Shown: positions 8,617-25,476 of the stretch, piece by piece
Position numbering within the stretch: position 1 is the first letter of the stretch
Layout of the letters: the number at the start of each line of letters is the position of its first letter
Origin: an uncultured Spirochaetota bacterium
Lineage (GTDB): Bacteria; Spirochaetota; Spirochaetia; SZUA-6; Fen-1364
Length of the DNA: 64,000 bases
Direction of reading: 5' to 3'
NCBI GenBank assembly: GCA_963820525.1
Contig: CAWGAA010000001.1
Coordinates: forward strand, 3,072,001 to 3,136,000
Position numbers and translations under genes: made by a program
Notes under the pieces: generated by a model
The model's database searches: none
Seen by the model: only the letters and a program-made list of their open reading frames with translations
Told to the model about the DNA's origin: nothing

Positions 8617-10540
8617 CCAATCTTCGACAGTTTGGCCCCCTTAAAAAGTGCATTCCCCTCGAATTTGCGGGGAATTTGAAGGTTTTTTTACAACTGGACC
8701 ACTTTATGTAGTGCCACGGAATTGGCAGTTTATGAAGAAAATGCTTGCACAGATGGCCTCTTCATGGTAGTATCCGTAGAGGGGGAGGCAGGCAATGTTC
8801 GTCCGCATCAAGAACTCGCACGGATACAAGTACCTTCAGATCGTTGAAAGCAAGCGTGAGGGCAAAAAGGTCAAACAACGTGTCCTCACCACCCTCGGCC
8901 AACTGGATGCACTCACCGCATCAGGCAAGATCGATGACCTCACCCGATCGCTGGCGAAGTTCTCCTCGATTCGAACGATCATCGATGCTCACCGCGAGGG
9001 CACCATCCAAGCGCACCGCACACTGTCCATCGGTCCCGCCCTTCTCTTCGACCGATTGTGGCAGCAGTTGGGGATCAAAGAGGCGATAAAGGGCCAAGTG
9101 GCCGCTCGCCCATGGCGCTTCTCCCTGGAACGGGCGATCTTCCTCACCGTCCTGCACCGCCTCTTCGATCCGGGAAGCGACCGCGCGGCAGAGCGCTGGA
9201 AGGAGGATTTCCAGATCAGCGGGACAGAGGGAATCGAGCTTCATCACCTCTACCGCGCCATGGGCTGGCTGGGAGAACAGAGCATCCAGCTCGGCCATGA
9301 TGCGCGAAGCCTGCGCTGCCGAAAGGACCTCATCGAAGAGGAGCTTTTTCGCCGTAACCGCGATCTGTTCAGCGAGTTGGAGCTGGTGTTCTTCGACACC
9401 ACGAGCCTGTACTTCGAGGGGCAAGGGGGAGAAAGCCTGGGACAGTACGGGCACAGCAAGGACCACAGACCCGACCTGAAACAGATGGTGGTCGGCGCGG
9501 TGCTGGACGGCACTGGGCGGCCGATCTGCTGCGAGCTGTGGCCAGGGAACCTCACCGATGTCACCTCCCTTATCCCGGTGGTCCAACGACTGAAGAGCCG
9601 CTTCGCAATCGCTTCGGTGTGCGTGGTGGCAGACCGCGGGATGATAAGCGCAGAGACGATCGAGAAACTTGAAACTGATGAGCTTGGCATGTCCTACATC
9701 CTTGGAGCGCGCATGCGCAAGGACAAGACGGTGCGCGATGAAGTGCTTCCTTCCTCTGAGAAGTTCCAAGTAGTCACAGGAGAGAAGAAGAAGCCTGGGG
9801 ATCCCTCCCCCCTATCGGTGCGGGAGCAGTGGGTGGGGGAGAAGCGTTACGTGGTCTGTTACAACGACGATCAGGCCCGAAAGGATGCCGCGGACAGAAA
9901 GGCCATCGTGGAGTCTTTGAAAGAGAAGCTCAAAAGCGGGGACAAGAGCCTCGTGGGCAATAAGGGCTACAGGCGATACCTGAAGTCCGCGGGAAAGGAG
10001 CACTTCACCGTCGACGAGGCCAAGCTCGCGAAGGAGCAGCTGTTCGACGGCATGTGGGTGCTGCGCACCAATACCGCGTTTGCCGCCGCGGATGTGGCAC
10101 TGAAGTACAAGCAGCTATGGATGGTGGAATCGATATTCCGTTCGGCCAAGAGTCTTCTGGAGACCCGCCCTATCTATCACAAAGTTGACGACACTATCCG
10201 GGGGCATGTGTTCTGCAGTTTCCTCGCGCTTGTTCTACGAAAAGAGCTGGAAACGAGACTTGAGAAGCACGGGGCCAAGCTGGAGTGGGCGGATATCAAT
10301 AGGGACCTTCGAGCACTGCAGGAAGTGGAAGTGGAAATGCATGGCAAGAAGCTGTATCTGCGCACCGACCTTCGGGGGGTATGCCACACGGTATTGCAGG
10401 CTGCGGGTGTCGCGGTGCCGCAGACGGTTCGCGAATGATCGCCATGCTAGGGGAAGTCGCGCTGTAGTGCCAAAGAAATTCCGTCGGCTTCTAATTCCTT
10501 ACGGGGCAAGTACTTCATTTTTCAAACTGTCGAAGATGGG
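8617..10540 (+). mobile_element. IS1634-family insertion sequence
   Basis: 18-bp terminal IRs CCAATCTTCGACAGTTTG / CAAACTGTCGAAGATGGG (1 mismatch); 5-bp target duplication CTAGA at 8612-8616 and 10541-10545. Confidence 0.9.
8795..10438 (+). CDS. IS1634-family DDE transposase
   Basis: YLQIVES...KVKQR N-terminus, FFDTTSLYFEG, GHSKDHRPDL, VADRGM, VESIFR..K...LETRPIYH. Confidence 0.92.
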   Translation: MFVRIKNSHGYKYLQIVESKREGKKVKQRVLTTLGQLDALTASGKIDDLTRSLAKFSSIRTIIDAHREGTIQAHRTLSIGPALLFDRLWQQLGIKEAIKGQVAARPWRFSLERAIFLTVLHRLFDPGSDRAAERWKEDFQISGTEGIELHHLYRAMGWLGEQSIQLGHDARSLRCRKDLIEEELFRRNRDLFSELELVFFDTTSLYFEGQGGESLGQYGHSKDHRPDLKQMVVGAVLDGTGRPICCELWPGNLTDVTSLIPVVQRLKSRFAIASVCVVADRGMISAETIEKLETDELGMSYILGARMRKDKTVRDEVLPSSEKFQVVTGEKKKPGDPSPLSVREQWVGEKRYVVCYNDDQARKDAADRKAIVESLKEKLKSGDKSLVGNKGYRRYLKSAGKEHFTVDEAKLAKEQLFDGMWVLRTNTAFAAADVALKYKQLWMVESIFRSAKSLLETRPIYHKVDDTIRGHVFCSFLALVLRKELETRLEKHGAKLEWADINRDLRALQEVEVEMHGKKLYLRTDLRGVCHTVLQAAGVAVPQTVRE

Positions 10541-10615: not shown

Positions 10616-11224
10616 TTATTGTTGGGGCTTGTAGATGAAGGGTCCATCACTATCTTTATATATTTTGGTAAATTCAGGACCAATAGGAATGAGATATTTC
10701 TTGCTTTTCCTATACTCTGTCTTGGACGCAGTTTCTCTACAAACGAGTTGGGCAATTCTTGTTCCAGGATAAAGTGCGATAGGAACATTTGAGATATTCG
10801 CGAGTTCAAGAGTAATGCATCCCTTGAAACCTGGTTCAATAGTGACGGCTGTTGCAATTACTAGACCTATGCGCGCTATCGAAGATCTCCCTTCGATGGA
10901 AGCTTCGATATTTGCTGGGAGCCCTATATATTCAAACGTTGAGCCAAGCACCATTGTTTGCGGGTGGAGGTAGAACGGCGTTCCAAAAGGAACGACGACC
11001 TCTGTTTGTATAGACTTGATCTTTTCTTTGTCATGCATAAGAGATTTCGGATCAATTGCATTAATGTTTTCAATTCGAAATATAATGAATTGATTGGAGA
11101 GACGAAGATCAATTCCTATTTGATTGATCTGGAGATCACGGTCAAGCAATGGAGTTACTACGAGTTTACTCACATCGGACCGGTTAAGATATTCAATCAA
11201 TTCATTCTTAGACAAGGTGCTCAT
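10616..11224 (-). CDS. dcd: dCTP deaminase (trimeric dUTPase fold)
   Basis: IDLRL, EGRSSIARIGL, IEPGFKGCITLEL, RIAQL. Confidence 0.88.
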   Translation of the reverse strand: MSTLSKNELIEYLNRSDVSKLVVTPLLDRDLQINQIGIDLRLSNQFIIFRIENINAIDPKSLMHDKEKIKSIQTEVVVPFGTPFYLHPQTMVLGSTFEYIGLPANIEASIEGRSSIARIGLVIATAVTIEPGFKGCITLELANISNVPIALYPGTRIAQLVCRETASKTEYRKSKKYLIPIGPEFTKIYKDSDGPFIYKPQQ

Positions 11225-12530
11225 CAGCTGGACCTTTCGAATTCTGATACTCCGAGTCTACATAACTTGAAAAGAGAGACTTAAGAAGTAGACGCATTAG
11301 TATTTGATAATTCGTGATAAACTCATCACCTTTCGATATTTGATCGATCTTTTGGTAATATATCCATCCGGCAAGAATAATATCCGCCATTCCCACAGGT
11401 TTGCCGTGCAATTCATTAGCCGGAATGATATCGTCAAGCTTCAGGTACAATTCGTCGATTTGATTAGGATTGAGATAGTACTTTGGGACTTGGCTCTGAG
11501 CATAGGATATAATATCGGGAAGAGATGCCTTAAAAAGCTTGATCTCCTCTGCAATATCAGTCAGAGCTTTTTGATCCTCATTATCAGAAAGGTACTGCTC
11601 GATGTCCTGCAGATATCTTTTATAGTACTTTGAGCATTCGGACTTAGAGGTAGCTACGGGGGCCATCCTTCCGTCAATCTTTAAAATCTCTTCATATAGT
11701 ACTCTTATACGATACTTGATTGGCGGATAATAATTAGTAAATCTGCTGGGTAATTCTATTTTGCCTTCAAATATGGATATAAAATCTAAAGCAAATAGCA
11801 TCGAAGGGCCAAAGATAAGATATCCACAAATGTCTGAAAGAATCTCACGATACATACCTTCAAGTATCTTCATGCCTTCTATGGTCTTTTCATATGGACG
11901 GAATAGATCAGCGGGAAACTTCTTTCGGTAGTAGGTGCTCAGATGAACGTTCTGATCTAAAATCAGTTTCTTTGCTTCAGGTGTTTCTTTCCATCTATTA
12001 TGGTAGAAATGACCCAATTCATGACCGATCACCGAATAGAGAAGAACATTGGTCTTCTCGAGATAAGGAAACGAAAAGACATGAATTTTCTGAGTGGAAA
12101 ATAGGCTGCTAATCTCTTGTGCTCGAGTCGGGAATATGGTAAGTAGCACATTGCTTAAGGGTCTGATAAGATCGTCTGTCATAACGGAATAGTTAAAATG
12201 CCATTGCGGCCTGAATAAGAGTAGATAGTCGGTTCCAAATTGCTCCTTAAGCATGCGATCAAGATATGGAATAACACTCCATGGAATATTTGCAGTTGAT
12301 GCCCGTTCTATATAGCGAACACTAGGTATGAATCTGGTCGAAATGAATATGAACAAAACCTTGTATGTTGATTCCTCAATCTCACCAAAGTGATCAACAA
12401 AATACTGGATGAACTTCTTGTAGCTGTCTATTGCAAGCACACAGGATTGGTTATAAAAATCAACGGTCTTGATTTCATCGAGATAGTTTCTAGCGCTAAT
12501 GAGCTTTCTATATAGCTTATTCTCAATCAT
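11208..12530 (-). CDS. Hypothetical 440-aa protein with zincin-like HEXXH motif
   Basis: VIGHELGHFYH plus downstream EILSD...FGP; overlaps the dcd start by 17 bp. Confidence 0.75.
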   Translation of the reverse strand: MIENKLYRKLISARNYLDEIKTVDFYNQSCVLAIDSYKKFIQYFVDHFGEIEESTYKVLFIFISTRFIPSVRYIERASTANIPWSVIPYLDRMLKEQFGTDYLLLFRPQWHFNYSVMTDDLIRPLSNVLLTIFPTRAQEISSLFSTQKIHVFSFPYLEKTNVLLYSVIGHELGHFYHNRWKETPEAKKLILDQNVHLSTYYRKKFPADLFRPYEKTIEGMKILEGMYREILSDICGYLIFGPSMLFALDFISIFEGKIELPSRFTNYYPPIKYRIRVLYEEILKIDGRMAPVATSKSECSKYYKRYLQDIEQYLSDNEDQKALTDIAEEIKLFKASLPDIISYAQSQVPKYYLNPNQIDELYLKLDDIIPANELHGKPVGMADIILAGWIYYQKIDQISKGDEFITNYQILMRLLLKSLFSSYVDSEYQNSKGPADEHLV

Positions 12531-12547
12531 TTGTTGCGCGTGATTCT

Positions 12548-13004
12548 TTACGCATACTGAAGGGAAGATTGGCTATGCGAAAGTACGTTATAGTTTTCTG
12601 AGTAGATTTTGCTGATCTTCTCAAAGAAATCTTGGAGGTCTGTCGAGGCCTGCCCCTTGTAAAATTTGCCTAGGATTGAGATCAAAATCAGCGAGTTGCT
12701 CTCTAATCTGCGTAAAGTAGTTTTTGAGGGAATTGAGCTTTTCTCTGTTTAGCGGAGTTGTCAGGCTTTCCGTAATCTCAATGACGTCTTTGAGATTTGG
12801 GACGAATTGAAAAACACCCGTAATATCAGATTGATATATATCGACGCCAAGTGTGTCCAGTGATCTAATTAGCTGATCTAAGAATGCTAAACCTTCTTTT
12901 AAGTAGGCTTTAGAGGTTGGAGATAGTGGCGTTTTTGAAGTTATAAGGGTGTGTCGAATGTTATCAAAAATAACCTGAAGTCGAAATTCTTCAAGATTTT
13001 CCAT
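12548..13004 (-). CDS. Small helical hypothetical protein (probable frameshift near 12665)
   Basis: RBS GGGGAGG + ATG at 13004; an alternative frame FYKGQASTDLQDFFEKISKIY... continues to a stop at 12548, just upstream of the next gene. Confidence 0.6.
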
Positions 13005-13072
13005 GATCTGCCCCTCCCCTAATATATGTCCATTTATACCACTTCGGAGCACTCACTGCAAATACTTTTTTC

Positions 13073-13079
13073 GCATAAC
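13073..13079 (-). other. Isolated GTTRRRY-like core site starting the distal cassette
   Basis: Minus strand GTTATGCGAAA matches the GTT-N4-RRAA start of the other four cassettes. Confidence 0.55.
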
Positions 13080-13115
13080 ATTGTATTAAACTGCATAGGA
13101 CTCTGGCGCAATGGC

Positions 13116-13249
13116 CTATAGCGTCCTGCAAATATGTGACGCGGCCCTGAGGCCAACAAGGCCGAAGGGCCGTGTGGCGGAGCGGCGCGCTGCAGCGCCG
13201 CGGAACCCAAGGCGCCTACTGGCGCCGATGCACATATTTGCTGTTATGT
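13116..13249 (-). repeat. attC-like site A (one core degenerate, GTT to GCT)
   Basis: Arms GCAAATATGTG/CACATATTTGC, branched GC-rich interior closely similar to sites B and C; cyclase-like gene stop TAA lies in the inverse core. Confidence 0.8.
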
Positions 13250-14149
13250 GGAGCCCTGCGGTTGCGTGCGCCTTGATCGTATCTTTGTAACTCTATCTAA
13301 TTCTTTTGTGTATTCGGGCCAACTTGTATTGAAAGGTTTACTCTCATCCTTATTTGAAATGAAAGGATAGTGCAACTGACCCATTGTGGAGTTGATGTAC
13401 TCTTCAAGGTACTCCAGCAGTGTTACCTCACTCTGCGGAGTCGTGCCAGCCAACTCCATTTCTAGTTCGTTCAGTTTGTTATGCAGGTCGATCCAGATGA
13501 CTGGGTATTCCTTGTTTCCCAAGACGCCTTTCAAAACGACTTTGTTCTGACAAAAAAGTCGAATGTCATTTCTTCGAAGGGTCAGGAAGTTGTCCCTCAT
13601 CAAAAGTATGGCAAGCTCGACGGATATCACGAATTTACCAATTTCCGCAAATTTGGAGATTCTAAATCCGATGTCAATGGATTTTCCGATGAACTCTGTT
13701 CTTTCACTCTCTACTCTGGAGTTGTCAACAGGAGTATTCCCGGTCCACGCAGTTCCCTTTATCTTGAGCTCACTGGTCTCATTGAATCTCGCGATTGCCT
13801 TCCTAAATACATTGATGTACCACAGTATCAACGAATATTGGCTATCTTCAGCAGGCTTCACTTCTCGGAACGATTCAATGATGCTTATGAAAAACAGCAG
13901 CTCGTCACCATTGATTTTCCATTGAGAAGGAACGGGCAGCGTGAGTTCTCTCTTTTTGCCTGCATTGACCCTTATAGCAGCTCGACTGCATTCTTCTTTC
14001 AGTATTTGAGAAAATTCGCTGTAGAAGTCGCTAAGTGATACAGTCCAATCGCGATCCTGGTATTTTCGCTGAGTCGAATCAATTACGTCAACGCTCAGGA
14101 AGAGGAAAAAATCCTCTTTATTGACTTCTACAGGTTCATGTGGGCGCAT
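13244..14149 (-). CDS. Divergent class III nucleotidyl cyclase-like protein (single-gene cassette)
   Basis: FLSVDVIDST (first metal Asp), WKINGDE (second Asp), FIGKSIDIGFR (GxxVNxAxR-like), LKG; RBS GGAGG just inside the cassette end. Confidence 0.65.
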   Translation of the reverse strand: MRPHEPVEVNKEDFFLFLSVDVIDSTQRKYQDRDWTVSLSDFYSEFSQILKEECSRAAIRVNAGKKRELTLPVPSQWKINGDELLFFISIIESFREVKPAEDSQYSLILWYINVFRKAIARFNETSELKIKGTAWTGNTPVDNSRVESERTEFIGKSIDIGFRISKFAEIGKFVISVELAILLMRDNFLTLRRNDIRLFCQNKVVLKGVLGNKEYPVIWIDLHNKLNELEMELAGTTPQSEVTLLEYLEEYINSTMGQLHYPFISNKDESKPFNTSWPEYTKELDRVTKIRSRRTQPQGST

Positions 14150-14177
14150 CCATAGACCTCCTAGATCGCAGGGTTCC

Positions 14178-14307
14178 ACATAACGTCCCGCAAGTATACG
14201 ACTTGGCCCGAGGCCAACATGGCCGAGGGCCATGTGGTGGAGCGGCGCGCTGCAGCGCCGCGGAGCCCAAGCCGCCCGCCAGGGCGGCGAAGCACATATT
14301 TGCTGTT
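14178..14307 (-). repeat. attC-like site B (interrupted at its GTT by IS1182)
   Basis: Plus strand ACATAAC-GTCCC-GCAAGTATACG...CACATATTTGC-T-GTT; core continues as GTTAGGT at 16025. Confidence 0.85.
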
Positions 14308-16024
14308 GATTCTGTAGGAAAAGCCACGCGCCTACTTTACGCTATTTGATATCCAGCGCACAATAGCTTCATGGCGCGGTATAAGGATCATAATCAGGAT
14401 CAAGGCGAGTTTATTGTCGTCCAGTTCAGCGAGCAACTGCTTATGGATACCTTCGAATACACGCTCAATCACCTGATCAACGAGAAAATAGATTTATCAG
14501 CGCTCGATTCAAAGTATAAGAACGATCTTACCGGTGCTCCTGCATATGATCCTCGGGTTTTACTGAAAATCATTCTTTTCGCCTACTCCAGAGGCATATT
14601 TTCATCACGACGGATCATGGAGCTTTGCGAGACGAATATCATAGCCAAAGCGCTTTCGGCAAACTCCATCCCGCATTTCACGGTCATAGCGGATTTCATC
14701 TCATCGATGAAGGATGAAATCGCCGGCATATTTCTGAAAATCCTCATGGTGTGCCAGGAAATGGAGCTCATCGGCGGAAAGCTGTTTGCGATTGACGGAT
14801 GCAAGCTGCCGTCCAACGCGTCCAAAGAATCGAGCGGCACCTTCAGGGATCTCAAAAGGAGAAAAGAAAAACTTGAAAGAACGGTAAAACTGCTCATTCA
14901 AAAGCATACTGTAACCGACAGAGCTGAAACCGCATCAGGATCCGAAGTTTCGCCAAAGAAGAAAGCCATTGATAGGATCGACTCAAAGATCAAGCACATC
15001 GAGGACTTCCTTAAAACAGAAACGCCGAAACAGGGCAACCGTGGCAAGGAAATACAGTCGAATATCACGGATAACGATAGCGCAAAGATCAAGACTTCTC
15101 ACGGAATGATCCAGGGGTATAACGGGATCGCCCTCGCGGATGAACAAAACCAGGTCATTATAGCCACCGAAGCCTATGGGAAAGGGCAAGAACATGGGAC
15201 ATTCAAGCCCGTTCTTGAAATGGCGGAAGAGAATCTGAAAGCCATCACCGACAAGGAAGAACCTCTTTCAGGAAAGACCGTACTTGCGGACACGAATTAC
15301 TTCTGTGAAGAAAACCTAAAAACAGCCGCGGATAAGAAAATCGAGGCGATCATCCCGGACTACAACTTTCGAAAACGAGACGAGCGCTTCGTGGACAGGA
15401 AAGATCATTCGGGTATCGAGTATAAGTTTGGATTTCAAAATTTCACATATGATGAGAAAACAAACACGTATACATGTCCCAACGGGAAAACACTGAAACA
15501 TAGAGGACATGCAATACTTCATGGATCTTCGGGGCATCGTTATCAATCCAAAGCGTCCGACTTTAAGGGGTGTCGGTTTACAAATAAATGCTTTCATCGC
15601 AAAAAGAATAGCAGCGGCAAGCGGACACTCTTTATAGATGACAAGGATAATTCCACCAATTATTCGGCACAAATGATCCAGAAGATCGACCGGCCGGAGG
15701 TCAGGGATTTATATTCAAGACGGATGGCAATCATCGAACCAGTGTTTGCGAATATCACATTCCATAAGAGACTGAACAGATTCACTCTGAGAACGAAAGC
15801 GAAAGTGAATATTCAATGGCTGTTATATTGCATGGTTCATAATATAGGAAAGATTTCAAAGGCGATGTCTGGAGCGAATGCATGATGGAAAAGAAAATGC
15901 ACACCGATTGTCCGATGATCTATATCGATAGAGTAGTTTTCGCTTTCTGATCATTCATAAATCGTTTTTGAATCGAGTTTGAAGGAGAACTGTTGTCTTT
16001 TGGGCTATATTTTCCTACAGACTC
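14308..16024 (+). mobile_element. IS1182-family insertion sequence
   Basis: 15-bp IRs GATTCTGTAGGAAAA / TTTTCCTACAGACTC (1 mismatch), flanked by GTT on both sides. Confidence 0.88.
14371..15885 (+). CDS. IS1182-family transposase
   Basis: GAPAYDPRVLLKIILFAY..GIFSSR, AIDGCKL..NAS, ITDNDS, LADTNY, YTCPNGK, IEPVFANI. Confidence 0.92.
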   Translation: MARYKDHNQDQGEFIVVQFSEQLLMDTFEYTLNHLINEKIDLSALDSKYKNDLTGAPAYDPRVLLKIILFAYSRGIFSSRRIMELCETNIIAKALSANSIPHFTVIADFISSMKDEIAGIFLKILMVCQEMELIGGKLFAIDGCKLPSNASKESSGTFRDLKRRKEKLERTVKLLIQKHTVTDRAETASGSEVSPKKKAIDRIDSKIKHIEDFLKTETPKQGNRGKEIQSNITDNDSAKIKTSHGMIQGYNGIALADEQNQVIIATEAYGKGQEHGTFKPVLEMAEENLKAITDKEEPLSGKTVLADTNYFCEENLKTAADKKIEAIIPDYNFRKRDERFVDRKDHSGIEYKFGFQNFTYDEKTNTYTCPNGKTLKHRGHAILHGSSGHRYQSKASDFKGCRFTNKCFHRKKNSSGKRTLFIDDKDNSTNYSAQMIQKIDRPEVRDLYSRRMAIIEPVFANITFHKRLNRFTLRTKAKVNIQWLLYCMVHNIGKISKAMSGANA

Positions 16025-16049
16025 GTTAGGTGAAGGGCAGAACAGCAAA

Positions 16050-16547
16050 TTACCGATATGATTTTGCCATTTTATCCCTTTTCTGCAAAAATTCAGGTTC
16101 CAAATGTTTGGCTAATATTTTAACTATTAAAGATATAGCCTTATCTATATCTTTATAAATATCTGACTCCCAAATGCGAATGACATTCCAGCCGCTATGT
16201 ATTAATGATTTTGTGTTCTTAATATCTCTATCAATATTATTTTCGATCTTAGCAATCCAATATTTACTATTATAGCCCTTTATCAATTTCTTTCTTCTAA
16301 GATGCCAGTCTTTTCCATGCCAAAAATCTCCATCTACAAATACTACACATTTTTCTTTAGTAAATACTATATCAGGTATACCTGGCATAGTCCTCACATT
16401 TTTCCTATAGCGTAAACCGATTTTCCATAAATAATGACGAAGTAGTACTTCTGGCTTAGTATCCTTTTTCTTACTCGCTCCGCGTGCTTTAGCTGAGGCA
16501 TTTTCTGACTTTGGATATAATCCTTTAAATGATGCATTTTTATGCAT
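16050..16547 (-). CDS. vsr: Very short patch repair endonuclease
   Basis: DTKPEVLLR, PGIPDIVF, FVDGDFWHG, GWNVIRIWE. Confidence 0.92.
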   Translation of the reverse strand: MHKNASFKGLYPKSENASAKARGASKKKDTKPEVLLRHYLWKIGLRYRKNVRTMPGIPDIVFTKEKCVVFVDGDFWHGKDWHLRRKKLIKGYNSKYWIAKIENNIDRDIKNTKSLIHSGWNVIRIWESDIYKDIDKAISLIVKILAKHLEPEFLQKRDKMAKSYR

Positions 16548-16550
16548 GAT

Positions 16551-17540
16551 TTATCCAAATATCGCCTTATATAATCCCCCTAATTCTACAATCTCCATTT
16601 TTGATAATGGTAGAATATCAGTTAATTCTGACTTAAATCTAACATCGCTGACTTCTGCAGGAATGTTAGACGTAATTTGGGGAATTTCGATTGCATCATA
16701 TATACTAATAGTATTTAGAGCATTTGAGGAATCAAATCTTATGCGTATAGCATCTCTCCAATCTCTGCCTAAGCTCATCGTGATTATTTGTGAAATTCTT
16801 TCTTTTAATCTTTCTGATATATCCATACGCGAGGTTATTTTTTCCCAAAGATCTATGATGGAAAGGCCATTTGCTTTTTCATCTATCAGGAAAGAAACAA
16901 TCAGTATTCTATTGTTTTTCTTAGGAATTAATTGATCAAGATTGAAATTATGAATACGTATAGGACCTTTAGTCGATTTAACTTCTAATTGTTGTTCTCC
17001 ATTGACAAAGTCAAATAATTCATTCGGATCAGCGTGCCAAGCAGTTGCAGCTAAGTTAATATCGTGCGCATTAGCAATGAGAAATAGTTCACACCAAATG
17101 CCCTCAATAGAGCTTAATGGAGGAGCCTCCATTGATCTAAACAACTCAATTAGATTAGATATTATTAATAAAATGTCTATGTCTTTAGATTCCAAAGGCA
17201 TCAGTGAAATAATCCCAGATAACGCCCGCAAAAAGTATTCTCTTAATATCTGATCTGCTTTTGAGCATTTAATCATCGTGAGCCTTTCTGAAGCGATTGT
17301 TCCATCATTATTAATAATTTGGCACATACAACTGGGACGAAATGAAAAATATTTGAATTCTCTTGGAGGAATAGAAAGCTCGTTTGAATGGCTTTTAGTT
17401 GAGAATAAGAGAGCGGGATTTCCATAAGAATCTTTTGCAATATGAATATTGGGATGCCCAGGCAATACAAGTGCTGAATAGAATTCTCCAGAATCTTTAA
17501 TTTCTTTTAGATTAAGAAATAGTGAAAACAAGTCAATCAT
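16551..17540 (-). CDS. PD-(D/E)XK motif protein (DUF4420-like)
   Basis: GIWCELFLI, W...LFDF...LEVKST; follows the Z1 gene. Confidence 0.8.
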   Translation of the reverse strand: MIDLFSLFLNLKEIKDSGEFYSALVLPGHPNIHIAKDSYGNPALLFSTKSHSNELSIPPREFKYFSFRPSCMCQIINNDGTIASERLTMIKCSKADQILREYFLRALSGIISLMPLESKDIDILLIISNLIELFRSMEAPPLSSIEGIWCELFLIANAHDINLAATAWHADPNELFDFVNGEQQLEVKSTKGPIRIHNFNLDQLIPKKNNRILIVSFLIDEKANGLSIIDLWEKITSRMDISERLKERISQIITMSLGRDWRDAIRIRFDSSNALNTISIYDAIEIPQITSNIPAEVSDVRFKSELTDILPLSKMEIVELGGLYKAIFG

Positions 17541-19692
17541 TATTGTTCTCAGTATGTATAAGAATATCATCTTGCTGAGTAAGCCTTATAGCTACTGCGG
17601 GTACATTTTCATAATAATGATTATCATCTTCGATACGAAAAAAATGTATCTGAATCGTTGGCAAATCTTTCTGGAAAAATGCGCGATCGCCAGGATAAGA
17701 ATCAGCTCCAGAGCTTGAACGGCCTTGAAAAAGCTGCGGGATTATTCCTTTTGAAAGACGCCGCGTTCGCTTTAGGCCATAATGCATGAAATAGACTAAA
17801 CATTTCAAATTATTATCGAGATCAAGCATTGATTTTAGATTGCAATTAACATAGCAAAGGCCTATTGCATCTTCTTCATCGAGATATGATAGAGGTGCCA
17901 GTACATTCTCGAAAACTTCATTTAGAAAAGTGAAAGCCAATTTGTGTTGTGGAAACCTAGCATTTTCTTTGAATTGCATGTTTTCAAGAAGCTTTATAAG
18001 CTTAGCGTTGTGAAGACCTTCGCTGGGCGAATTATGCGGAGCTCGCGGTGCAAACCAATTATCCCCCAAATGTGGCCTTAGATAAGGTGTTGATAATATA
18101 TTATATCTTGTGGGTGCTAAGCTATGATCAAGATAAAAAAGTCTTCGCCATTCTTTTAAAGGGCGACCCCGATGAGCTTCTAACCGATTTCGCATATCTT
18201 GTTCATGCCTAACATAAGCTATATATGCGTACTTTACATCTGGGTGTAAATAAACTCTGCAAAAACCAAAATGTCCGCTATGATATCCAAAAAATCGCGC
18301 ACGTTGTTGTATCGTATCTGCTGTCCAACCACCTGGACCTCTAGGCATATAAGTTACAGTTAAACCTTTTACAGTATATCCACGACCTAGTTTCTCGCCA
18401 CCTACAAGAATATGTGAATATGAGTTTTGCCATTGAACTTCACGCCCTTCTATAGAATTAACTAAGGTTACAGTAGTTTGATTTATAGCTACAGGTAATT
18501 TGCCCTCAATTTGATTGAATGGCGGCAATGAAGAACAGGTACGACTTAAATCATCATAAGCGGTTCTAAAATCAGCCATTAATTCAATACGATCTGGTTC
18601 ATTCATAGCTTGTAATATTCTATGCCAGTTGTGCTTTATGGCTTCTATCCAATCATAATAATGACGATGTATAGCTATTTTTTTTGAAGCATGAACTAGC
18701 ATTGATCGATGCTCTTCAGAGTGAGAAATACGTCCAGCTGCTACGCCAATAAAATAAACTTGTAGCGCATGTAATAAAGACTCTGGAGGCTCTTCTGGCA
18801 TATGCTCATCATCAAAAAGATATGCTTGTGCAATTGTTTCAACATATATGCTGTTTTCAGCAAAAAACAGATCCCCACCTATGTATCCTTCACCAGGTGA
18901 AACAAGCTCTGCAAAATCTGCTGATAATGAATCTATTCTAGTAATTAGCAATGGAGCTTGCGGAGTTGCAGTGTATTGCAAGAAGGTATGAGATGGGAGG
19001 GCTTTTCTAAGCCCATCAATACTGACATAAGTTGCACTAGCATTTGGCTCATTCGGGCGTGTGTTCAAACTGGCCTGATCCGCTTCATCATCGAATATAA
19101 TAGAAGGTATTCCACCCAGATCGATTGAGCTTAGCAACTGTGTCAAATTATTTAAATGCCTGTAATTCTTCATTACAGTAATGAAAAGTGTTCGTCGGTC
19201 TTCATCAACATATTGATTACTTCGCCATTCTTCAATTAATGCTACGATAGCAGGTAATTCATTATCTTTTCGTGGGTTTTTTAACATATGCCACGTCCAA
19301 TCAGGCGATGCTGAACGCAAATGAGATTCCATTCTTTCACTATTTTGTGTTACGAGATTAGTTGTTATTCCAGCGATTAGAATAATAATTCTATAGCCAT
19401 TATCTTTTGCTAAAGCAGAAATAGCAGTCATCGATGCAGTTTTGCCACTTTGAACATACCCACATACAAGTCCAATCCCGGGATTCTCAGATGAAGTCGG
19501 TGGATTGCATTTAGATAGAATACGATGTGCCTCATCAATTAAGCGGTTTGCATCTTCCCCTGAGGGTAGAATCCCTTGAGTTATGAAATAATTCCTAAGT
19601 GAGTTTGTGACATTCCCAATTATTGGAACCCAATTACCATTCGAATCATGAATATTTATGATTTTAATAATTTCATTAGAGTTAATAGCCAT
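17533..19692 (-). CDS. Z1 domain-containing SF2 helicase-like/endonuclease subunit
   Basis: GYVQSGKT, DDEADQAS, YTATPQA, SMLVH, LGRGYT, DTIQQRARFFGY. Confidence 0.9.
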   Translation of the reverse strand: MAINSNEIIKIINIHDSNGNWVPIIGNVTNSLRNYFITQGILPSGEDANRLIDEAHRILSKCNPPTSSENPGIGLVCGYVQSGKTASMTAISALAKDNGYRIIILIAGITTNLVTQNSERMESHLRSASPDWTWHMLKNPRKDNELPAIVALIEEWRSNQYVDEDRRTLFITVMKNYRHLNNLTQLLSSIDLGGIPSIIFDDEADQASLNTRPNEPNASATYVSIDGLRKALPSHTFLQYTATPQAPLLITRIDSLSADFAELVSPGEGYIGGDLFFAENSIYVETIAQAYLFDDEHMPEEPPESLLHALQVYFIGVAAGRISHSEEHRSMLVHASKKIAIHRHYYDWIEAIKHNWHRILQAMNEPDRIELMADFRTAYDDLSRTCSSLPPFNQIEGKLPVAINQTTVTLVNSIEGREVQWQNSYSHILVGGEKLGRGYTVKGLTVTYMPRGPGGWTADTIQQRARFFGYHSGHFGFCRVYLHPDVKYAYIAYVRHEQDMRNRLEAHRGRPLKEWRRLFYLDHSLAPTRYNILSTPYLRPHLGDNWFAPRAPHNSPSEGLHNAKLIKLLENMQFKENARFPQHKLAFTFLNEVFENVLAPLSYLDEEDAIGLCYVNCNLKSMLDLDNNLKCLVYFMHYGLKRTRRLSKGIIPQLFQGRSSSGADSYPGDRAFFQKDLPTIQIHFFRIEDDNHYYENVPAVAIRLTQQDDILIHTENNND

Positions 19693-21221
19693 TATTTTCC
19701 GCTTTTTTTAATAGGCCCAGATAAAGACCTTAGAATCTGATTTAAGTTTCTACGTATCGTTCCTGCTTGCCTAACGCCTGCTTCTCTTGCTGTAATTTCT
19801 GCGATTGCCAGGCCTGCAGCTAGCCGAGTAAATGGTATTATTTCATCTCCATCTGGCGAAACGAAACGGTCCATGAAGGGATGTGCTAGATTCATACGAA
19901 TATGAACTTCAATTTCTGATTTCTGCTTGTTATTTTGAGATAGCTCATACCATTCTTCATGCGATATATCATCAATAAGCTCAATTGTTATAGACCAATG
20001 CTTAAGTGCGTGATTTACTTCAATTTTAACAGATGTACTCTTAGCTTTTTCGTCTTTAGATTTTTCAAGCCTTGTAGCTAGTGGCTCATCTTTAGGCTTA
20101 TTATTTAATTGTTCTTCTATTATCGGAGATAGGTGCTGTGCAATTATATGAGTTGCATCTTCGGGTGCTTCGCTAATAACTTCCTGTATCATGTTGCTAT
20201 GAGCCCGATAATTTGCTGCTTGATCAAGTAATGGAATTGGTTTTGTATTTAACTCCGATTTTAGCCATTTTAATATATCATCTTCCCAATCTTCCCACTG
20301 AATACCATCTTTAGTATGACTAACAGAAAATCCCTGAACTTCAAGCTCTCCAATAAGTCGCTGATAAACAAATTTATTAGCTTTTCCAAAAATATATTCT
20401 GGACGGTAAGCTTCGCCACAACTGCCCTGTATTAATCTCCTTCGCCTAAATAATGCAAAGCCAGCATTTGTAACACTTCCACGTGCAAGAATTCCTGCCC
20501 ATCCTTTAACGCTATGATCATTATTAAAAACCATATTAAAATTCTTTTGCCAAATTATTGGTTTATTGTCAGGAGTTGAATGATACGGTGCTTCAAGGAA
20601 AACAGGTGGTTCATAAATCAATGGAGTCCCATCTACTTTTATCTCTAATAAATTATCTCTGATAAACAAGCGATAAATGCTACCAAGATGATCCTTTATT
20701 TTGTCTAGCGTCCGTCCTTTTGGTTTAACCAGCAAATTACTAAGAGTTATTACAGTAAAGTGCTTCTGTTCATTAACTCGATTCTCTGTTGGCTGCAATT
20801 TTTCGATATTATTCTTAACTATCATTGGTATGTCAAATACTATTGACCTCTCTACATTTTCACCAATCGCTTTTGTTCTTACTATCCAAGTTCTCGCGAA
20901 CCAGCTAGCGGCTGCTTTCATGCCAAGACCAAATTCAGACAATCCAGAAGTATCTGGCGGGATTGCAGCTGGAAGAAAGGCTCTTGCATAATCACTTATG
21001 GCTATACCAGCTGCATTATCGCGAATCTCAATATAATCATCATGCAATTCTATCTCAACTAATAGCTTATAATACTTACCATCCAATTTTCTTAGGGCAG
21101 TAATATTTGAACAGCCACTTTGTAGGGAATTATCGACAAATTCTGCTAGCGCAAACCACGGCTTGTAATTCAGTCTTGCAAATGAAGCATACATAGCTAC
21201 TTCAGGTCTGATTATTATCAA
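19692..21221 (-). CDS. GHKL (MORC/MutL/HSP90-like) ATPase
   Basis: ALAEFVDNS, IRDNAAGI, EFGLGMKAA Bergerat-fold motifs. Confidence 0.88.
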   Translation of the reverse strand: MIIIRPEVAMYASFARLNYKPWFALAEFVDNSLQSGCSNITALRKLDGKYYKLLVEIELHDDYIEIRDNAAGIAISDYARAFLPAAIPPDTSGLSEFGLGMKAAASWFARTWIVRTKAIGENVERSIVFDIPMIVKNNIEKLQPTENRVNEQKHFTVITLSNLLVKPKGRTLDKIKDHLGSIYRLFIRDNLLEIKVDGTPLIYEPPVFLEAPYHSTPDNKPIIWQKNFNMVFNNDHSVKGWAGILARGSVTNAGFALFRRRRLIQGSCGEAYRPEYIFGKANKFVYQRLIGELEVQGFSVSHTKDGIQWEDWEDDILKWLKSELNTKPIPLLDQAANYRAHSNMIQEVISEAPEDATHIIAQHLSPIIEEQLNNKPKDEPLATRLEKSKDEKAKSTSVKIEVNHALKHWSITIELIDDISHEEWYELSQNNKQKSEIEVHIRMNLAHPFMDRFVSPDGDEIIPFTRLAAGLAIAEITAREAGVRQAGTIRRNLNQILRSLSGPIKKSGK

Positions 21222-22501
21222 ATCATATTCTCCTTAGCATGGCTTTTAGAAGGATATAAATTTTGCACAGTACTCCTTGGGCCGCGTCCGACACCAGGAT
21301 GATCAGAGTGATTTCCTTTAAGATAAAGGTATTTCTTTATGACCGGATAGCAACGAGAAGGAGGTGGACAATCCTCTCTATGAGGCGGCATTAATCGTAA
21401 AGTTAGTGGGATGCAATTTTCATTTAATAATTGCCTTCTTATTTCGAGGCCAAATAATTCTCCAATTAAGCAAGGCACTGCATTTCCTACTTGACGATGT
21501 GCTGAAGACCTATTTCCATAAATTTCATATCCATCAGGAAAAGTTTGTAAACGTGAGATTTCTTTGATACTTAGCAAGCGATTTCGCCAATGAAATGGAC
21601 CAGAAGCTGGTCCAGGACTAGCTTGTATGGTCCAAGACGGATACCTTTTTGATAATTTGAGTAGAAATGACCAGTACTTTGTCCTCCAGCCAAAAAGGGG
21701 GGTCCCATTACCACGATGAGTGTGCCATAGATAATTTTTTCCCTCAGGGATGCTTTTAATCAAATCTTTCCATTTTCCCCTAATTTGAAGGTCAGCAGAC
21801 CATTCATTTGTATCAAGATCACCAATTGCATCCCAGGAATTCCTATAAGGTTCAAGGCCGTCAGCATATCCACATATGGGAGAAGGCATATCGAGCATTT
21901 TTCCATTAATATCAGCGACAATAAAAATCCGTTTCCGTATTTGTGGAACACCATAATCTGCAGAGTTTATATAAAAGTCTTGTAGCTTATATTCAGTTCC
22001 TTTCTTTCTATTTATTCTTTCAATACCATCTTTAATTAATTCCAATCCAGATCTCTGCCTTCCATAAGCATTCCAAGATATCCCTTTTACGTTCTCGAGT
22101 AATATTACTCTTGGTAACGCTACCTCAACCACATTAAGAAAAGCTTGAAGTGTTTTTGTTCTCGGGTCACGTAAGCCAGCAGAGGTGCCATTAAACCAAT
22201 AGGTCGACTTTGAGAAAGGCTGACAAGGTGGTCCGCAAGAAAGTAGTGCGGTTTCTCCAGGTTGCAGGCCAACTTGTGATAATAGCTCAGAAGGATGAAT
22301 TCTAAAAATATCACCTGGATTGGTTAGAGTCCAAGAAGGATTATTCTTTGTTAATGTTTTTCTTGAGTCATCGTCAGCTTCGATACAGCCCTTAATACAA
22401 AATCCGGCATATTCTAGACCTAAATCCAAACCACCTGCTCCAGTGAATAATGATAAAACTAAATGTTCTGGTTTTTTTTTCTGCTTTAATCGTTTATTCA
22501 T
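21218..22501 (-). CDS. dcm: DNA cytosine-5 methyltransferase
   Basis: SLFTGAGG, GPPCQPFS, ENV, YGVPQ.RKR, RLQTFPD, QVGNAVP. Confidence 0.93.
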   Translation of the reverse strand: MNKRLKQKKKPEHLVLSLFTGAGGLDLGLEYAGFCIKGCIEADDDSRKTLTKNNPSWTLTNPGDIFRIHPSELLSQVGLQPGETALLSCGPPCQPFSKSTYWFNGTSAGLRDPRTKTLQAFLNVVEVALPRVILLENVKGISWNAYGRQRSGLELIKDGIERINRKKGTEYKLQDFYINSADYGVPQIRKRIFIVADINGKMLDMPSPICGYADGLEPYRNSWDAIGDLDTNEWSADLQIRGKWKDLIKSIPEGKNYLWHTHRGNGTPLFGWRTKYWSFLLKLSKRYPSWTIQASPGPASGPFHWRNRLLSIKEISRLQTFPDGYEIYGNRSSAHRQVGNAVPCLIGELFGLEIRRQLLNENCIPLTLRLMPPHREDCPPPSRCYPVIKKYLYLKGNHSDHPGVGRGPRSTVQNLYPSKSHAKENMI

Positions 22502-22896
22502 AATAAAAATGAATGGCTTCAATGGGTTTTTCAACGACCGCGGCCATGTACATATTGGATAAGACTTCAGCTATTGATATAGATTTAACGCTTGAATATT
22601 CCTTTAATGTCACCATATTGTCTTCAATAATCACCTTGATCACGGCATCGGTTTCAGTTGATTTGCGTTTACAGTTACCAGGATCGTGATCTATTCCCTC
22701 CTCTAGTTATGTAATATATCAGATCTTGACTATCATTGTACATTGTAAATTTTGGTCAATAGAAATCGGGACAATCACAAATCTCTACTGAGTTTATTAC
22801 TTAGCCTTGCAAGGATGTTTTTCATTATTGGGTAGAGCAAGAAACTGTCGTTGGTGACTGTTACATATGATACACACAAGTAGTGTTCTGCCTTTC

Positions 22897-23007
22897 ACCT
22901 AACGTTTCGAGCGTACACGACGTGGCCCGAGGCTAACAAGGCCGAGGGCCATGTGGCGGAGCCCGAGCCGCCCGCCATGGCGGCGAAGCGTGTACGCTCC
23001 GTTAGCT
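22897..23007 (-). repeat. attC-like site C
   Basis: Plus strand ACCTAAC-GTTTC-GAGCGTACACG...CGTGTACGCTC-C-GTTAGCT; perfect 11-bp arms; interior shared with A and B. Confidence 0.88.
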
Positions 23008-23015
23008 GAAGTGGA

Positions 23016-23536
23016 CTACGATCTTTTAAATCTTGTGGCATAAACTCTGCGTGGAAAATCGCCTTCTGCATACTCGGTTTTACTCGCATCTTTTACAATA
23101 TCTTCATTTGCGTACGCCTCTATTACTTCACCTATAAAAAGATTTTTATCTCCTGTTTCTATTTCTTGTTTAACTTTGCATTCAATATGAGCTACACACT
23201 CGGCAATAATAGGAGCTCTTACTTTTCGCGCTGGTTGTTGAGTTAATCCCGTTTCTCTAAATTTATCAAATTGATATCCTGAGTGCAAACCGCAATAATA
23301 TATTTTTGCTTTTAGCTGAGCGGGAGGAATATTTACAATAAATTCTTTATTACTTTTGATTAACTCATATGAAAAGGATTTGTTCCCTATGGCACAGGCT
23401 ATAAGTGGGGTCCCTTTGAGACAGGCATACAAAAGCTAACTGCGATGATATTTGATTTTATTTTTATCTCCCCGCAGGTTATTAAGAAATGTCTCATCGG
23501 CCACATAAATTCTAGATATTCGACATCAATATTCAT
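23016..23536 (-). pseudogene. Flavin reductase family protein cassette (one frameshift near 23410-23420)
   Basis: MNIDVEYLEFMWPMRHFLITCG...CMPVSK, then shifted frame PLIACAIG...EFIVNIP...HIECKV...GDKNLFIGEV. Confidence 0.8.
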
Positions 23537-23562
23537 TTTATCTAATCTCCCTTGTCCATTTC

Positions 23563-23757
23563 AGCTAACGTAAAGGGTTTACGACATGCCCCGTCCCGAA
23601 GGGCTGGCACAGGGGTTGCCCCGCAAAACATAGAAAAGAGTGTACCACACATCTTAGAGGACCGTAAGAAGATTTGATCTGCAAGCCCTGTGCCAGAGGG
23701 GCATGTGGCGAAGCCCGGAGCGACCGGAGGGAGCGGAGCGTAAACCCTATGTTGAAC
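23563..23757 (-). repeat. attC-like site D (long, different sub-type)
   Basis: Plus strand AGCTAAC-GTAAA-GGGTTTACG...CGTAAACCC-TAT-GTTGAAC; internal stems ACATGCCCC/GGGGCATGT and TGGCACAGGG/CCCTGTGCCA. Confidence 0.8.
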
Positions 23758-23787
23758 GAAGTCGCTCCGCCCGCGCTATGGGTTTTA

Positions 23788-24990
23788 TTACGCGCTGTTC
23801 CAATAACTTTCAGCGGTATTTTCCGGCGGGAGCTCAATAATCTGAATATTCGCGCTCTTGCAGCGGGGACATCTTTTTTCGATAGTCTCAGGCGCTTCCA
23901 AGAAAAAATCATACGATCGCTGTTGAGATTCTAGATCGATGCATAACAAACGACGGATGTATTTCAGATTCTCATTTTTGTGCCCGTTGCTCAAGAGGCC
24001 GTAAAATCGTATACGCTTGAATCCTTCCGGCAGCACATGCAGGAGAAATCTTCTCATGAACTCGGAGGCGCCAAGTGTCATTACCTTTTTCCGGTTTCTA
24101 TTCCTGTAGTCCTTCCATATAAAGCTCACGTTTCCGCCGGTGAAATTCAATATCCGTTTGTTGCTGATCGCTACCCGATGCGTATAGTGCCCTATATATT
24201 TCAGTACGCGTAACGGATTGGAAAACGGCTTTTTGGCGTAGACGATCCATTTTTTCGCATAACATTCATCCAACACCTTTGCAAACCCGGCTGTCTCTGC
24301 TGTCTTGCGTAACTTACCAAAGAAACTCAACTCTTTTGCTGCATATGCCTGTTTCAAATAATGCAGGTATTTACCTCTGAACAATCGATTGAGAATGTGT
24401 ATCGAGATAAAGAAGTTGTTCCTGCTTTCAATCCATGCGGATTTATCCCGGCTCAATCCCCCTCCGGTAACAATGCAGTGCAGATGTGGATGGTCAAGTA
24501 GGTTTTGGCTCCAGGTGTGGAGAATGGCGATAAATCCGATCTTCGCGCCGAGATTCTTCGGGTTTCCCGCGGCTTCTTGAAGAGTCTCGTTTGCGGCGTG
24601 AAAGAGAATGTCGTAGAGCACTCTTTTATTCTGGAGAATAAGGGAATTCAATACCGCCGGGACGGTGAAGACGATATGGAAATATTTTATGGGCAGAAGC
24701 TCTTGTGTCCGCTCGTAAACCCATTGCGCCTGCTTGCTCGCCTGGCATTTGGGGCAATGCCGGTTCCTGCATGAATTATAGGATATCTGTTCATACCCGC
24801 ATTCATGGCAAACAAGTTTATGGCCGCCCAATTTCGGACCGCGGCAGTTTATGATTGCGTTTACGACTTTCCAATGATCATAACTGATGCCTTTCAGTAA
24901 CTGGGTGCTTTGTCTGAAAACATCGGCGACTTCGAATTTGGGTCTTGGAAAAACCGTTGCCGCTTCAATATAGCCCATGCTGTATAACAA
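23788..24990 (-). CDS. IS91-family rolling-circle (HUH/Y2) transposase
   Basis: EVADVFR, SCRNRHCPKCQ zinc domain, HPHLH HUH motif, YIGHY tyrosine pair, RRFLLHVLP.GF.RIR.YG; exact start uncertain (24990 or 24978). Confidence 0.92.
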   Translation of the reverse strand: MLYSMGYIEAATVFPRPKFEVADVFRQSTQLLKGISYDHWKVVNAIINCRGPKLGGHKLVCHECGYEQISYNSCRNRHCPKCQASKQAQWVYERTQELLPIKYFHIVFTVPAVLNSLILQNKRVLYDILFHAANETLQEAAGNPKNLGAKIGFIAILHTWSQNLLDHPHLHCIVTGGGLSRDKSAWIESRNNFFISIHILNRLFRGKYLHYLKQAYAAKELSFFGKLRKTAETAGFAKVLDECYAKKWIVYAKKPFSNPLRVLKYIGHYTHRVAISNKRILNFTGGNVSFIWKDYRNRNRKKVMTLGASEFMRRFLLHVLPEGFKRIRFYGLLSNGHKNENLKYIRRLLCIDLESQQRSYDFFLEAPETIEKRCPRCKSANIQIIELPPENTAESYWNSA

Positions 24991-25053
24991 GCGGGAAACA
25001 TCTGTCTTGCTTTCATGGCGGCGAATGAAGACTAAGGCTTGATGAAAGCCATC

Positions 25054-25135
25054 GCGGAGCGATTTTGTTCAACTCGTTGAGTGTGAATTTCACCTTTCCA
25101 TTTCATTATAATCCTTCTTCCCCAATCATCAAGCA
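25054..25135 (-). promoter_or_regulatory. Head of array: sigma70-like promoter and terminal (attI-like) core site
   Basis: TTGATG (25132-25127)-16 bp-TATAAT (25110-25105) pointing into the array; palindrome GTGAAATTCAC 25083-25093; GTTGAAC core at 25073 with no linker upstream. Confidence 0.55.
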
Positions 25136-25476
25136 CATCTCGGTCGTATAGATAGGCATGGGAGTGCGCATTTCATGAACTATTATCTCGAGGCGTTCCT
25201 TCGGGAATCGAGGAATCGAGGGTATGTCACGGAGAAAACCGCCGCTAAAATCAAGAGCCCGCTTTGAGAATATCGTGAAATTCACGATACCAGCGCCATG
25301 CAGTCATTACGGGGAATTTCACCTTTGAGTATTTGAAGGACTTCAAAAATCTCGCCCGATGCGATTACGATCATCTTGGAGGACGGACGCGAGGGTGCGC
25401 GGCGCAGGCTTCCGGCAGACGCGGTTCAAGGAATAGACGGCCTCTTGTGACTTCAATGAATGAAGCCCTCCGCGAG

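Follow-up and report, generated by a model that had tools for sequence, protein, structure and literature searches.

At 13.1-25.3 kb of a 64,000-nucleotide stretch of DNA from an uncultured Spirochaetota bacterium (assembly GCA_963820525.1, contig C1, positions 3072001-3136000; the whole stretch is called the window below) lies what we take, with a probability of about 70%, to be a decayed secondary platform of an integron-type cassette system that uses a non-classical integrase. Its layout would consist of a dead, divergent recombinase gene, a promoter-like site, an attI-like core, four cassettes and a gene tail severed by an insertion sequence (IS). An intact 265-amino-acid paralogue of the recombinase, encoded on contig C3 of the same genome, would be the most likely enzyme, acting in trans. 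The source genome (G000; Gnnn denotes genomes and three-digit Lnnn denotes loci from other genomes) has 5.05 Mb, 60% GC and four contigs. The window holds a low-GC island at roughly 8-27 kb (33-50% GC vs about 63% around it), in which all genes from 25 down to 10.6 kb are on the minus strand, the sole exception being the transposase of one IS. The nearest relatives of the window genes come from Spirochaetota metagenome-assembled genomes (MAGs), and no tRNA gene is present in the window.

A first-pass annotation of this DNA had described four folded linkers separating co-oriented minus-strand gene units. Using a covariance model (R1) built for these linkers, and applied to the window, the whole genome and other genomes, we could confirm this description. 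The linkers, L1-L4, are mutually homologous on the minus strand, where they share the plan R''(7 nucleotides)-L''...three small hairpins...L'-4/5 nucleotides-R'(7 nucleotides), R'' and R' being the cores:

13116-13249, minus strand: linker L1, covariance model 136.1 bits; cores ACATAAC...GCTATAG (R' mutated)
14178-14311 by the model, otherwise 14178-14307 with R'' at 16025-16031, minus strand: linker L2, 138.3 bits; cores ACCTAAC (separated by an IS, now at 16025-16031)...GTTATGT
22897-23007, minus strand: linker L3, covariance model 102.5 bits; cores AGCTAAC...GTTAGGT
23623-23757 by the model, full extent 23563-23757 by the core parse, minus strand: linker L4, 17.5 bits; cores GTTCAAC...GTTAGCT
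25073-25067, minus strand: lone core GTTGAAC

No fifth site was detected in the window by the covariance model (next match, E = 0.04). L1-L3 are more stable than shuffled sequences on both strands (z from -2.7 to -7.0, with at most 1 of 200 shuffles as good). As annotated earlier, three linkers have intact cores and the first has a single mutated one. Most telling is the relationship between neighbouring cores, hereafter the cassette rule: R'' and the R' of the preceding site are exact reverse complements, so that R'' pairs with the start of its own cassette. In the window this holds for four of four junctions, namely GTTGAAC/GTTCAAC (lone core-L4), GTTAGCT/AGCTAAC (L4-L3), GTTAGGT/ACCTAAC (L3-L2) and GTTATGT/ACATAAC (L2-L1), whereas none of the four R'' cores is the reverse complement of its own R'. 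The mutual complementarity of unit ends noted in the first-pass annotation is thus confirmed. L2 appeared to be an exception, because an IS1182-family insertion had split its R''; the far junction of the insertion reads ACCTAAC. With AAC/GTT fixed and four variable positions, we estimate that a junction would match by chance at most about once in 16. Since each R'' matches the six bases that start its cassette, the cassettes would be cut and joined at G|TT of R'. In integron cassettes, the same core pattern is the product of excision and insertion at G|TT of R', as described in the available part of PMC2727003. Stop codons, too, are positioned in or near the inverse core, as the annotation had stated: the TAA of the open reading frame (ORF) at 13244-14233 lies within the R'' of L1 and the remaining stops are 9-31 nucleotides upstream of R''.

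The head of the array carries the elements of an integron platform, including the promoter and the lone core that had been placed there in the first-pass annotation:

25175..25270, plus strand: remnant of a short tyrosine recombinase gene, 30 codons, MNYYLEAFLRESRNRGYVTEKTAAKIKSPL followed by a stop, divergent from the array
25105..25132, minus strand: Pc-like promoter directed into the array, TTGATG-16-TATAAT, 10/12, a consensus match only
25067..25093, minus strand: attI-like site, consisting of the GTGAAATTCAC motif, 9 nucleotides and the lone core GTTGAAC

The earlier statement that the window contains no intI reading frame holds in so far as nothing in it matches the IntI profile TIGR02249, but the 30-codon remnant had been overlooked. 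The remnant consists of the N-terminal 17 residues of the recombinase fused to its C-terminal ~10, with an internal deletion of about 700 bp. In a blastn comparison, the C3 platform matches the window over 244 nucleotides (88.5%; recombinase 5' end and attI-like region) and over 106 nucleotides (75%; 3' end), the middle being absent, and the promoter-like stretch is kept in the C3 platform. The arrangement of motif plus core is also found upstream of the recombinase in C3 and in L021. In addition, GTGAAATTCAC-type motifs occur on both sides of the recombinase gene (window 25083-25093 and 25275-25285; C3:825774, 825813 and 826708). The motif precedes the attI-like core by about 9 nucleotides and is kept upstream of the recombinase in L021, the locus of a 48%-identical relative; it may represent a candidate recombinase-binding site. 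Signs of decay in the window are the deleted recombinase gene, the mutated R' of L1, the IS-split L2 and a tail without terminal site that ends at another IS.

On C3, the intact gene for the 265-amino-acid recombinase is divergent from an array of about 63 kb made of the same site family, and the integrase gene lies beside the attI-like site and the promoter (the latter, again, a consensus match). We refer to window-type sites as family B and to a different, canonical-type site family of the same genome as family A. Family-B sites number about 21 on C3 according to a profile search and 25 in the whole genome according to the covariance model, all in three clusters. Such a genome scan had been proposed in the first-pass annotation, and so had a search for IntI or other tyrosine recombinases next to the repeats, which yielded the short recombinase at the C3 array plus two canonical IntIs. 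Homologous linkers do occur elsewhere beside different genes, in C3 and in other arrays. The cassette rule is obeyed by 16 of 20 consecutive detected pairs on C3, and two or more of the four exceptions there bridge sites that were detected at a later stage and left unparsed. Over all family-B arrays examined the count is 34 of 43 (window 4/4, C3 16/20, C1:2.09 Mb 1/2, other genomes 13/17), and individual loci range from L109 (3/3), L110 (4/4) and L111 (2/2) to L112 and L107 (1/3 each). These totals are hand counts of consecutive detected site pairs made from printed cores, and they omit L018 (6/6 pairs) because its cores are uniform. Both the core complementarity and the C3 counterpart support the earlier proposal of a cassette array with integron logic.

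Site structure was assessed with 28 sequences taken from three MAG loci and this genome. Pairing in the L stem reaches 96.7%, and 9 of 11 pairs have compensatory changes; the covariation score was reached by none of 500 shuffles, and slid controls had 33-47% of cells paired vs 87.8%. One extra A is present in L'' of 6 of the 28 aligned sites. In nearly all of 38 parsed sites (of which five were mis-parsed and three of those re-read) and in 20 sites of other genomes, 0-1 nucleotides separate R'' from L'' and 4-5 separate L' from R'. Canonical attC sites, as far as covered by the consulted part of PMC2727003, have extrahelical bases on the R''-L'' arm and a central spacer unpaired on both arms; family-B sites are not built this way. 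Judging from sequence, the bulge of 4-5 nucleotides beside R' would take over the role of the extrahelical bases. The covariance model is specific: it detects none of the 175 family-A sites of this genome, and in the neighbourhoods of 75 recombinase relatives belonging to other phyla (734 kb) it gave one weak match. No Rfam family matched the linkers at gathering threshold, and at E ≤ 1 there were two unrelated weak matches. A naive scan of the genome for AAC...GTT plus a stem gave 2102 matches vs 2149 on the reversed sequence; such totals are uninformative and only the local density is useful.

The C3 enzyme is, by its sequence, an IntI/Xer-like tyrosine recombinase with catalytic residues and without the I2 insertion. 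Its match to TIGR02249 reaches 191 bits (cut-off 265) and is broken into two pieces, positions 179-237 being left out, and its best NCBIfam match is archaeal XerA, below cut-off. It is 39% and 33% identical to the two canonical IntIs of the genome and lacks three segments common to them. Compared with the Vibrio cholerae IntI (2A3V), residues 12-170 and 195-265 align to chain positions 13-179 and 247-317, with 24 residues in place of 67 in between. This 43-residue deficit between residues 170 and 195 means that the IntI-specific region (I2) is missing. The spacing from the Lys box to HxxRH is 65 residues vs 105-112 in 16 canonical IntIs. The AlphaFold model (predicted local distance difference test score, pLDDT, 87) is nearest to 2A3V, then to XerA, and has one helix and short strands at the position of the IntI insertion. 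Invariant columns of the alignment (A6) are consistent with the R-K-H-R-H-Y catalytic set. The short length is native: relatives form roughly 100 protein clusters with 44-90% identity, almost all of them 265-270 amino acids long. A quick tree of 45 sequences groups the I2-bearing IntIs in a single clade (support 98) and places the nine Spirochaetota short recombinases in another outside it (support 90), both apart from Xer. The first-pass annotation had suggested mobilisation in trans or by a non-classical recombinase, and both halves of the suggestion fit: the local gene is internally deleted, and the intact C3 paralogue lacks the IntI insertion.

The association of sites with this enzyme extends beyond the source genome. 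Short-family recombinases and arrays of family-B type are no more than a few kb apart in L017, L018, L019, G104, G092, G149, G100, G029, G043, G119 and G143, the recombinase and the array being divergent in some relatives and co-oriented in others. We surveyed a single sample of 150 Spirochaetota genomes, counting sites at E ≤ 1e-5, short recombinases at ≥217 bits and canonical IntIs. Sites were found in 29 genomes, the short family in 39 and canonical IntI in 15. The short family is present in 20 of the 29 genomes with sites vs 19 of the 121 without.

These data also bear on an alternative in which the array is an ordinary cluster of attC sites lacking an integron integrase (CALIN), its sites being a lineage-specific attC flavour. 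The cassettes would then be moved in trans by the genome's canonical IntIs, at C1:682 kb and at C1:1954 kb, and the short recombinase would have no part in it. In favour of this, each of the two IntIs passes the cut-off, a tolerance of IntIs for diverse attC sites has been reported (PMC4889954, as far as its available text goes) and one family-A-like site is embedded in the C3 array. However, canonical IntI occurs in only 3 of the 29 genomes with sites vs 12 of the 121 others, and, above the cut-off, in none of five well-assembled genomes with arrays; G092, a single contig, has rule-obeying sites with no canonical IntI above cut-off. Furthermore, the sites have no spare bases on the R''-L'' arm, where the extrahelical bases are defined in the portion of PMC2727003 referred to above. 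Finally, both canonical IntIs head arrays of the other site family, which the family-B model does not detect. The IntI at C1:682 kb (411 amino acids, with an N-terminal extension of ~95) heads a giant classical integron (G000:C1:683000-820000), and the second, at C1:1954 kb, is accompanied by four family-A sites. Family A is an attC family of ~115 nucleotides with 175 profile matches, 166 of them in C1:650-850 kb; its R''-L'' arm carries a single additional base, as in canonical attC, and the cassette rule holds in 67 of 105 consecutive detected pairs. We therefore regard movement by the canonical IntIs as unlikely.

A second alternative assigns the short recombinase to an attC-parasitising IS91-type element, as its partner gene instead of the array integrase. 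IntI relatives without I2 have been reported in IS91 and IS3 elements (bioRxiv 10.1101/542381, in the part available), and the recombinase gene adjoins an IS91 gene both in C3 and in the window. L114 (G067:C236:1-1828) shows the order 'recombinase plus IS91' that has been reported in such elements: the 3' end of a tyrosine recombinase gene is followed immediately, on one strand, by an IS91-family transposase gene. Yet the flanks of 21 short-family recombinase loci contain no IS91 gene in any case, and G092 has none at all. Here, moreover, the two genes are divergent, with the promoter-like site and the attI-like core between them, and not co-oriented as parts of one element would be. In addition, four of the six copies of the IS91 cassette have no adjoining recombinase. 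A partnership of this kind thus seems quite improbable.

The IS91 gene itself (NF033538, 420 bits; Pfam Y2_Tnp and Zn_Tnp_IS91) belongs to a cassette of 1504 bp, running from TTGAAC to the G of the R' of L4, which has six core-bounded copies in the genome. Upstream of each copy lies either a different site with GTTGAAC at its end or an attI-like region. Because a core-bounded cassette in six copies has varied upstream neighbours, the IS91 transposase gene is cargo, not driver, and would ride as a cassette like any other. The HUH transposase had been thought to head the array, but it neither heads nor drives it: its gene makes up the first cassette, with the same cores at its ends. The window copy is 100% identical to C3:826724-828233, whereas the two platforms differ by 11.5%, a contrast that could stem from gene conversion or from a recent arrival of the cassette at the two attI-like sites. 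Contigs from three public sequencing runs of three studies join the start of this cassette to yet another site; these joints reflect site-to-site similarity and differing neighbours of the IS91 cassette and do not stem from circles. In G149 an IS91 gene lies inside the array, but its cassette boundaries could not be shown. One-ended rolling-circle transposition by the HUH enzyme was considered as a mobiliser and rejected, since L4, although situated past the 3' end of the transposase gene, accompanies it in every case, an argument that presupposes a certain polarity of IS91.

HUH enzymes act on single-stranded hairpin DNA, and the IS91 gene is the first cassette in both the window and C3, so the IS91 transposase itself might be thought to cut and join the hairpin sites. 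This is very hard to reconcile with rule-obeying arrays devoid of any IS91 gene (G092), with the gene being core-bounded like other cassettes and with a G|TT crossover at the integron-type position. Still less credible is that the linkers, GC-rich, structured and intergenic as they are, represent repetitive extragenic palindromes, miniature inverted-repeat transposable elements or terminators, given core complementarity specific to the neighbour (four of four junctions vs none with the own core), a multi-copy cassette with exact core boundaries and the confinement of the sites to three genome clusters.

Several observations weigh against a cassette system served by the short recombinase. Nine of the 29 genomes with sites have no recognised short recombinase (mostly single weak matches or fragmented assemblies), and 19 genomes have a short recombinase and no detected sites. 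The 217-bit cut was chosen post hoc, a cut at 195 bits adding two genomes without sites, and the surveyed genomes belong to one phylum and are not independent. The tree comes from a quick search with a weak outgroup. Nine of the 43 consecutive pairs break the cassette rule, most of them spanning gaps of several kb, where sites may have been missed, or unparsed sites. The two canonical IntIs of the genome could act on family-B sites, and one family-A-like site (G000:C3:828849-828964) is situated within the C3 array, directly after its first IS91 cassette. No recombination was observed, and all 15 public runs listed are represented by assembled contigs, which cannot show circles; of the four that were compared with this DNA, one spans the whole stretch and may be the source sample. 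Finally, with the R' of L1 mutated, L2 split and the recombinase dead, the window copy may no longer be mobile, and if it still is, it would rely on the C3 enzyme. As to the family-A-like site in C3, the cores around it break the cassette rule, and it may reflect cross-talk of the two systems.

The cassettes and the genes that trail them are as follows:

23569..25072, minus strand: cassette 1, 1504 bp, IS91-family HUH transposase gene (23788-24990) and L4
22903..23568, minus strand: cassette 2, 666 bp, flavin-reductase-like gene (23016-23432; PF01613) and L3
14184..22902, minus strand: cassette 3, 8.7 kb (7.0 kb without the IS), Dcm, HATPase_c_3, Z1, DUF4420 and Vsr (16050-22534; Pfam, PADLOC) and L2
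14308..16024, plus strand: IS1182-family IS, transposase 14371-15885 (NF033551, 278 bits)
13122..14183, minus strand: cassette 4, 1062 bp, ORF of about 301 amino acids from 14149 and L1 (R' GCTATAG)
10616..13115, minus strand: trailing co-oriented genes without terminal linker, a 143-amino-acid ORF, a 440-amino-acid ORF and a dCTP-deaminase-like gene (PF22769)
8617..10540 (approximate), plus strand: DDE IS, transposase 8795-10438 (Pfam DDE_Tnp_1), with a CTAGA duplication, at the end of the low-GC island

Cassette 2 has a paralogue in the C3 array (90.5% identical). The array had been described as rich in defence-type genes. This is true of the 7-kb restriction-modification-like cassette, and PADLOC matched 3 of 10 proteins, but the others gave no defence match; the ORF of cassette 4 has neither a Pfam nor a PADLOC match, and the 143- and 440-amino-acid trailing ORFs have no Pfam match. 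At 10616-12530, the dCTP-deaminase-like gene overlaps the 440-amino-acid ORF, which contains the string HELGH; neither has a PADLOC match, and the two may constitute an unclassified gene pair. In L108 (G149:C1:1218001-1230000), restriction-modification-type genes, for a cytosine methylase, an adenine-methylase-like and a DUF262-like protein, are located between a short-type recombinase and the first detected site, so that defence cargo seems recurrent at the head of such arrays. The DDE IS that cuts off the trailing stretch has at least eight copies in the genome (95-97% identity), three of which are within the family-B cluster at C1:2.09 Mb (G000:C1:2088913-2096195), with ends abutting sites. 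The IS1182-family IS, bearing 15-nucleotide inverted ends, is inserted after the AAC of the R'' of L2, with duplication of AAC. All three copies (window 14308-16024, C3:860893-862591 and C3:~873620-875323) have the same position and orientation within family-B sites. The element looks like a site-specific parasite of these sites.

In the current view, integron integrases owe their ability to recombine folded attC sites safely to the I2 helix, which is regarded as their innovation (PMC7790495, in the part consulted). A conserved clade without I2 heading long rule-obeying arrays, whose sites have a differently built asymmetry, would provide a natural test of this view. IntegronFinder, according to the accessible text of PMC4889954, treats recombinases without the IntI-specific region as non-integrases; if the proposed system is real, some CALINs are complete systems overlooked by current tools. 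A literature search returned no paper on cassette arrays headed by recombinases without I2; the four 'intermediate' recombinases of PMC4889954 (figs S1 and S5) were outside the comparison. More tentatively, and with considerable doubt, the I2-less Spirochaetota recombinases might constitute a sister system to integrons that recombines folded single-stranded sites in the absence of the I2 helix, the R'-side bulge replacing the extrahelical bases, their IS91 kinship marking an origin of integrons from a recombinase that handled the single-stranded circles of a rolling-circle transposon. What the window itself contributes is a dated case of a decaying platform, sequence evidence that fits the recent entry of one cassette at two attI-like sites, an IS1182-family element that homes to the sites and a restriction-modification-like cassette of 7 kb.

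Among known systems, the IS1111-attC group comprises insertion sequences that target attC. As in that group, the IS found here occupies one fixed position and orientation of the cassette sites in three of three copies; unlike its members, it is an IS1182-family DDE transposon and not an IS110/IS1111 element. The linkers resemble the DUF1874 motif (Weinberg et al. 2017, PMC5737381), which, in the available part of that report, is a multi-stem structure found in successive intergenic regions, is suspected of being an unusual attC and has no integrase visible at the 5' end of its array; yet the linkers match no Rfam family (nor DUF1874, provided that the library contains it). The short recombinases are comparable to the 'integron-like subgroup' from IS91 and IS3 elements (Smyshlyaev et al., 10.1101/542381), described in the consulted part of that preprint as close to IntI and without the helical insertion, and in this genome they are physically linked to an IS91-family HUH gene. 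Unlike that subgroup, to which the same part of the preprint attributes no cassette array, the recombinase here heads an array of 63 kb in divergent orientation to the transposase gene and has no IS91 neighbour in 21 of 21 loci examined. The window copy, with four sites and no working integrase nearby, may also resemble CALINs, defined as attC clusters without an integron integrase (Cury et al. 2016, PMC4889954, in the text available). In contrast to integrons, the cognate-looking integrase lacks the IntI-specific region that IntegronFinder uses as its criterion, the unpaired bases are on the L'-R' arm and the variable part of the site is a three-hairpin junction. With sedentary chromosomal integrons, in turn, the system shares a divergent integrase gene, a promoter and an attI-like core, as well as co-oriented cassettes ending in folding sites, RYYYAAC/GTTRRRY cores, a G|TT crossover and a C before GTT. 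As in integrons, the cassettes are bounded at G|TT, and the boundaries of all six copies of the IS91 cassette agree.

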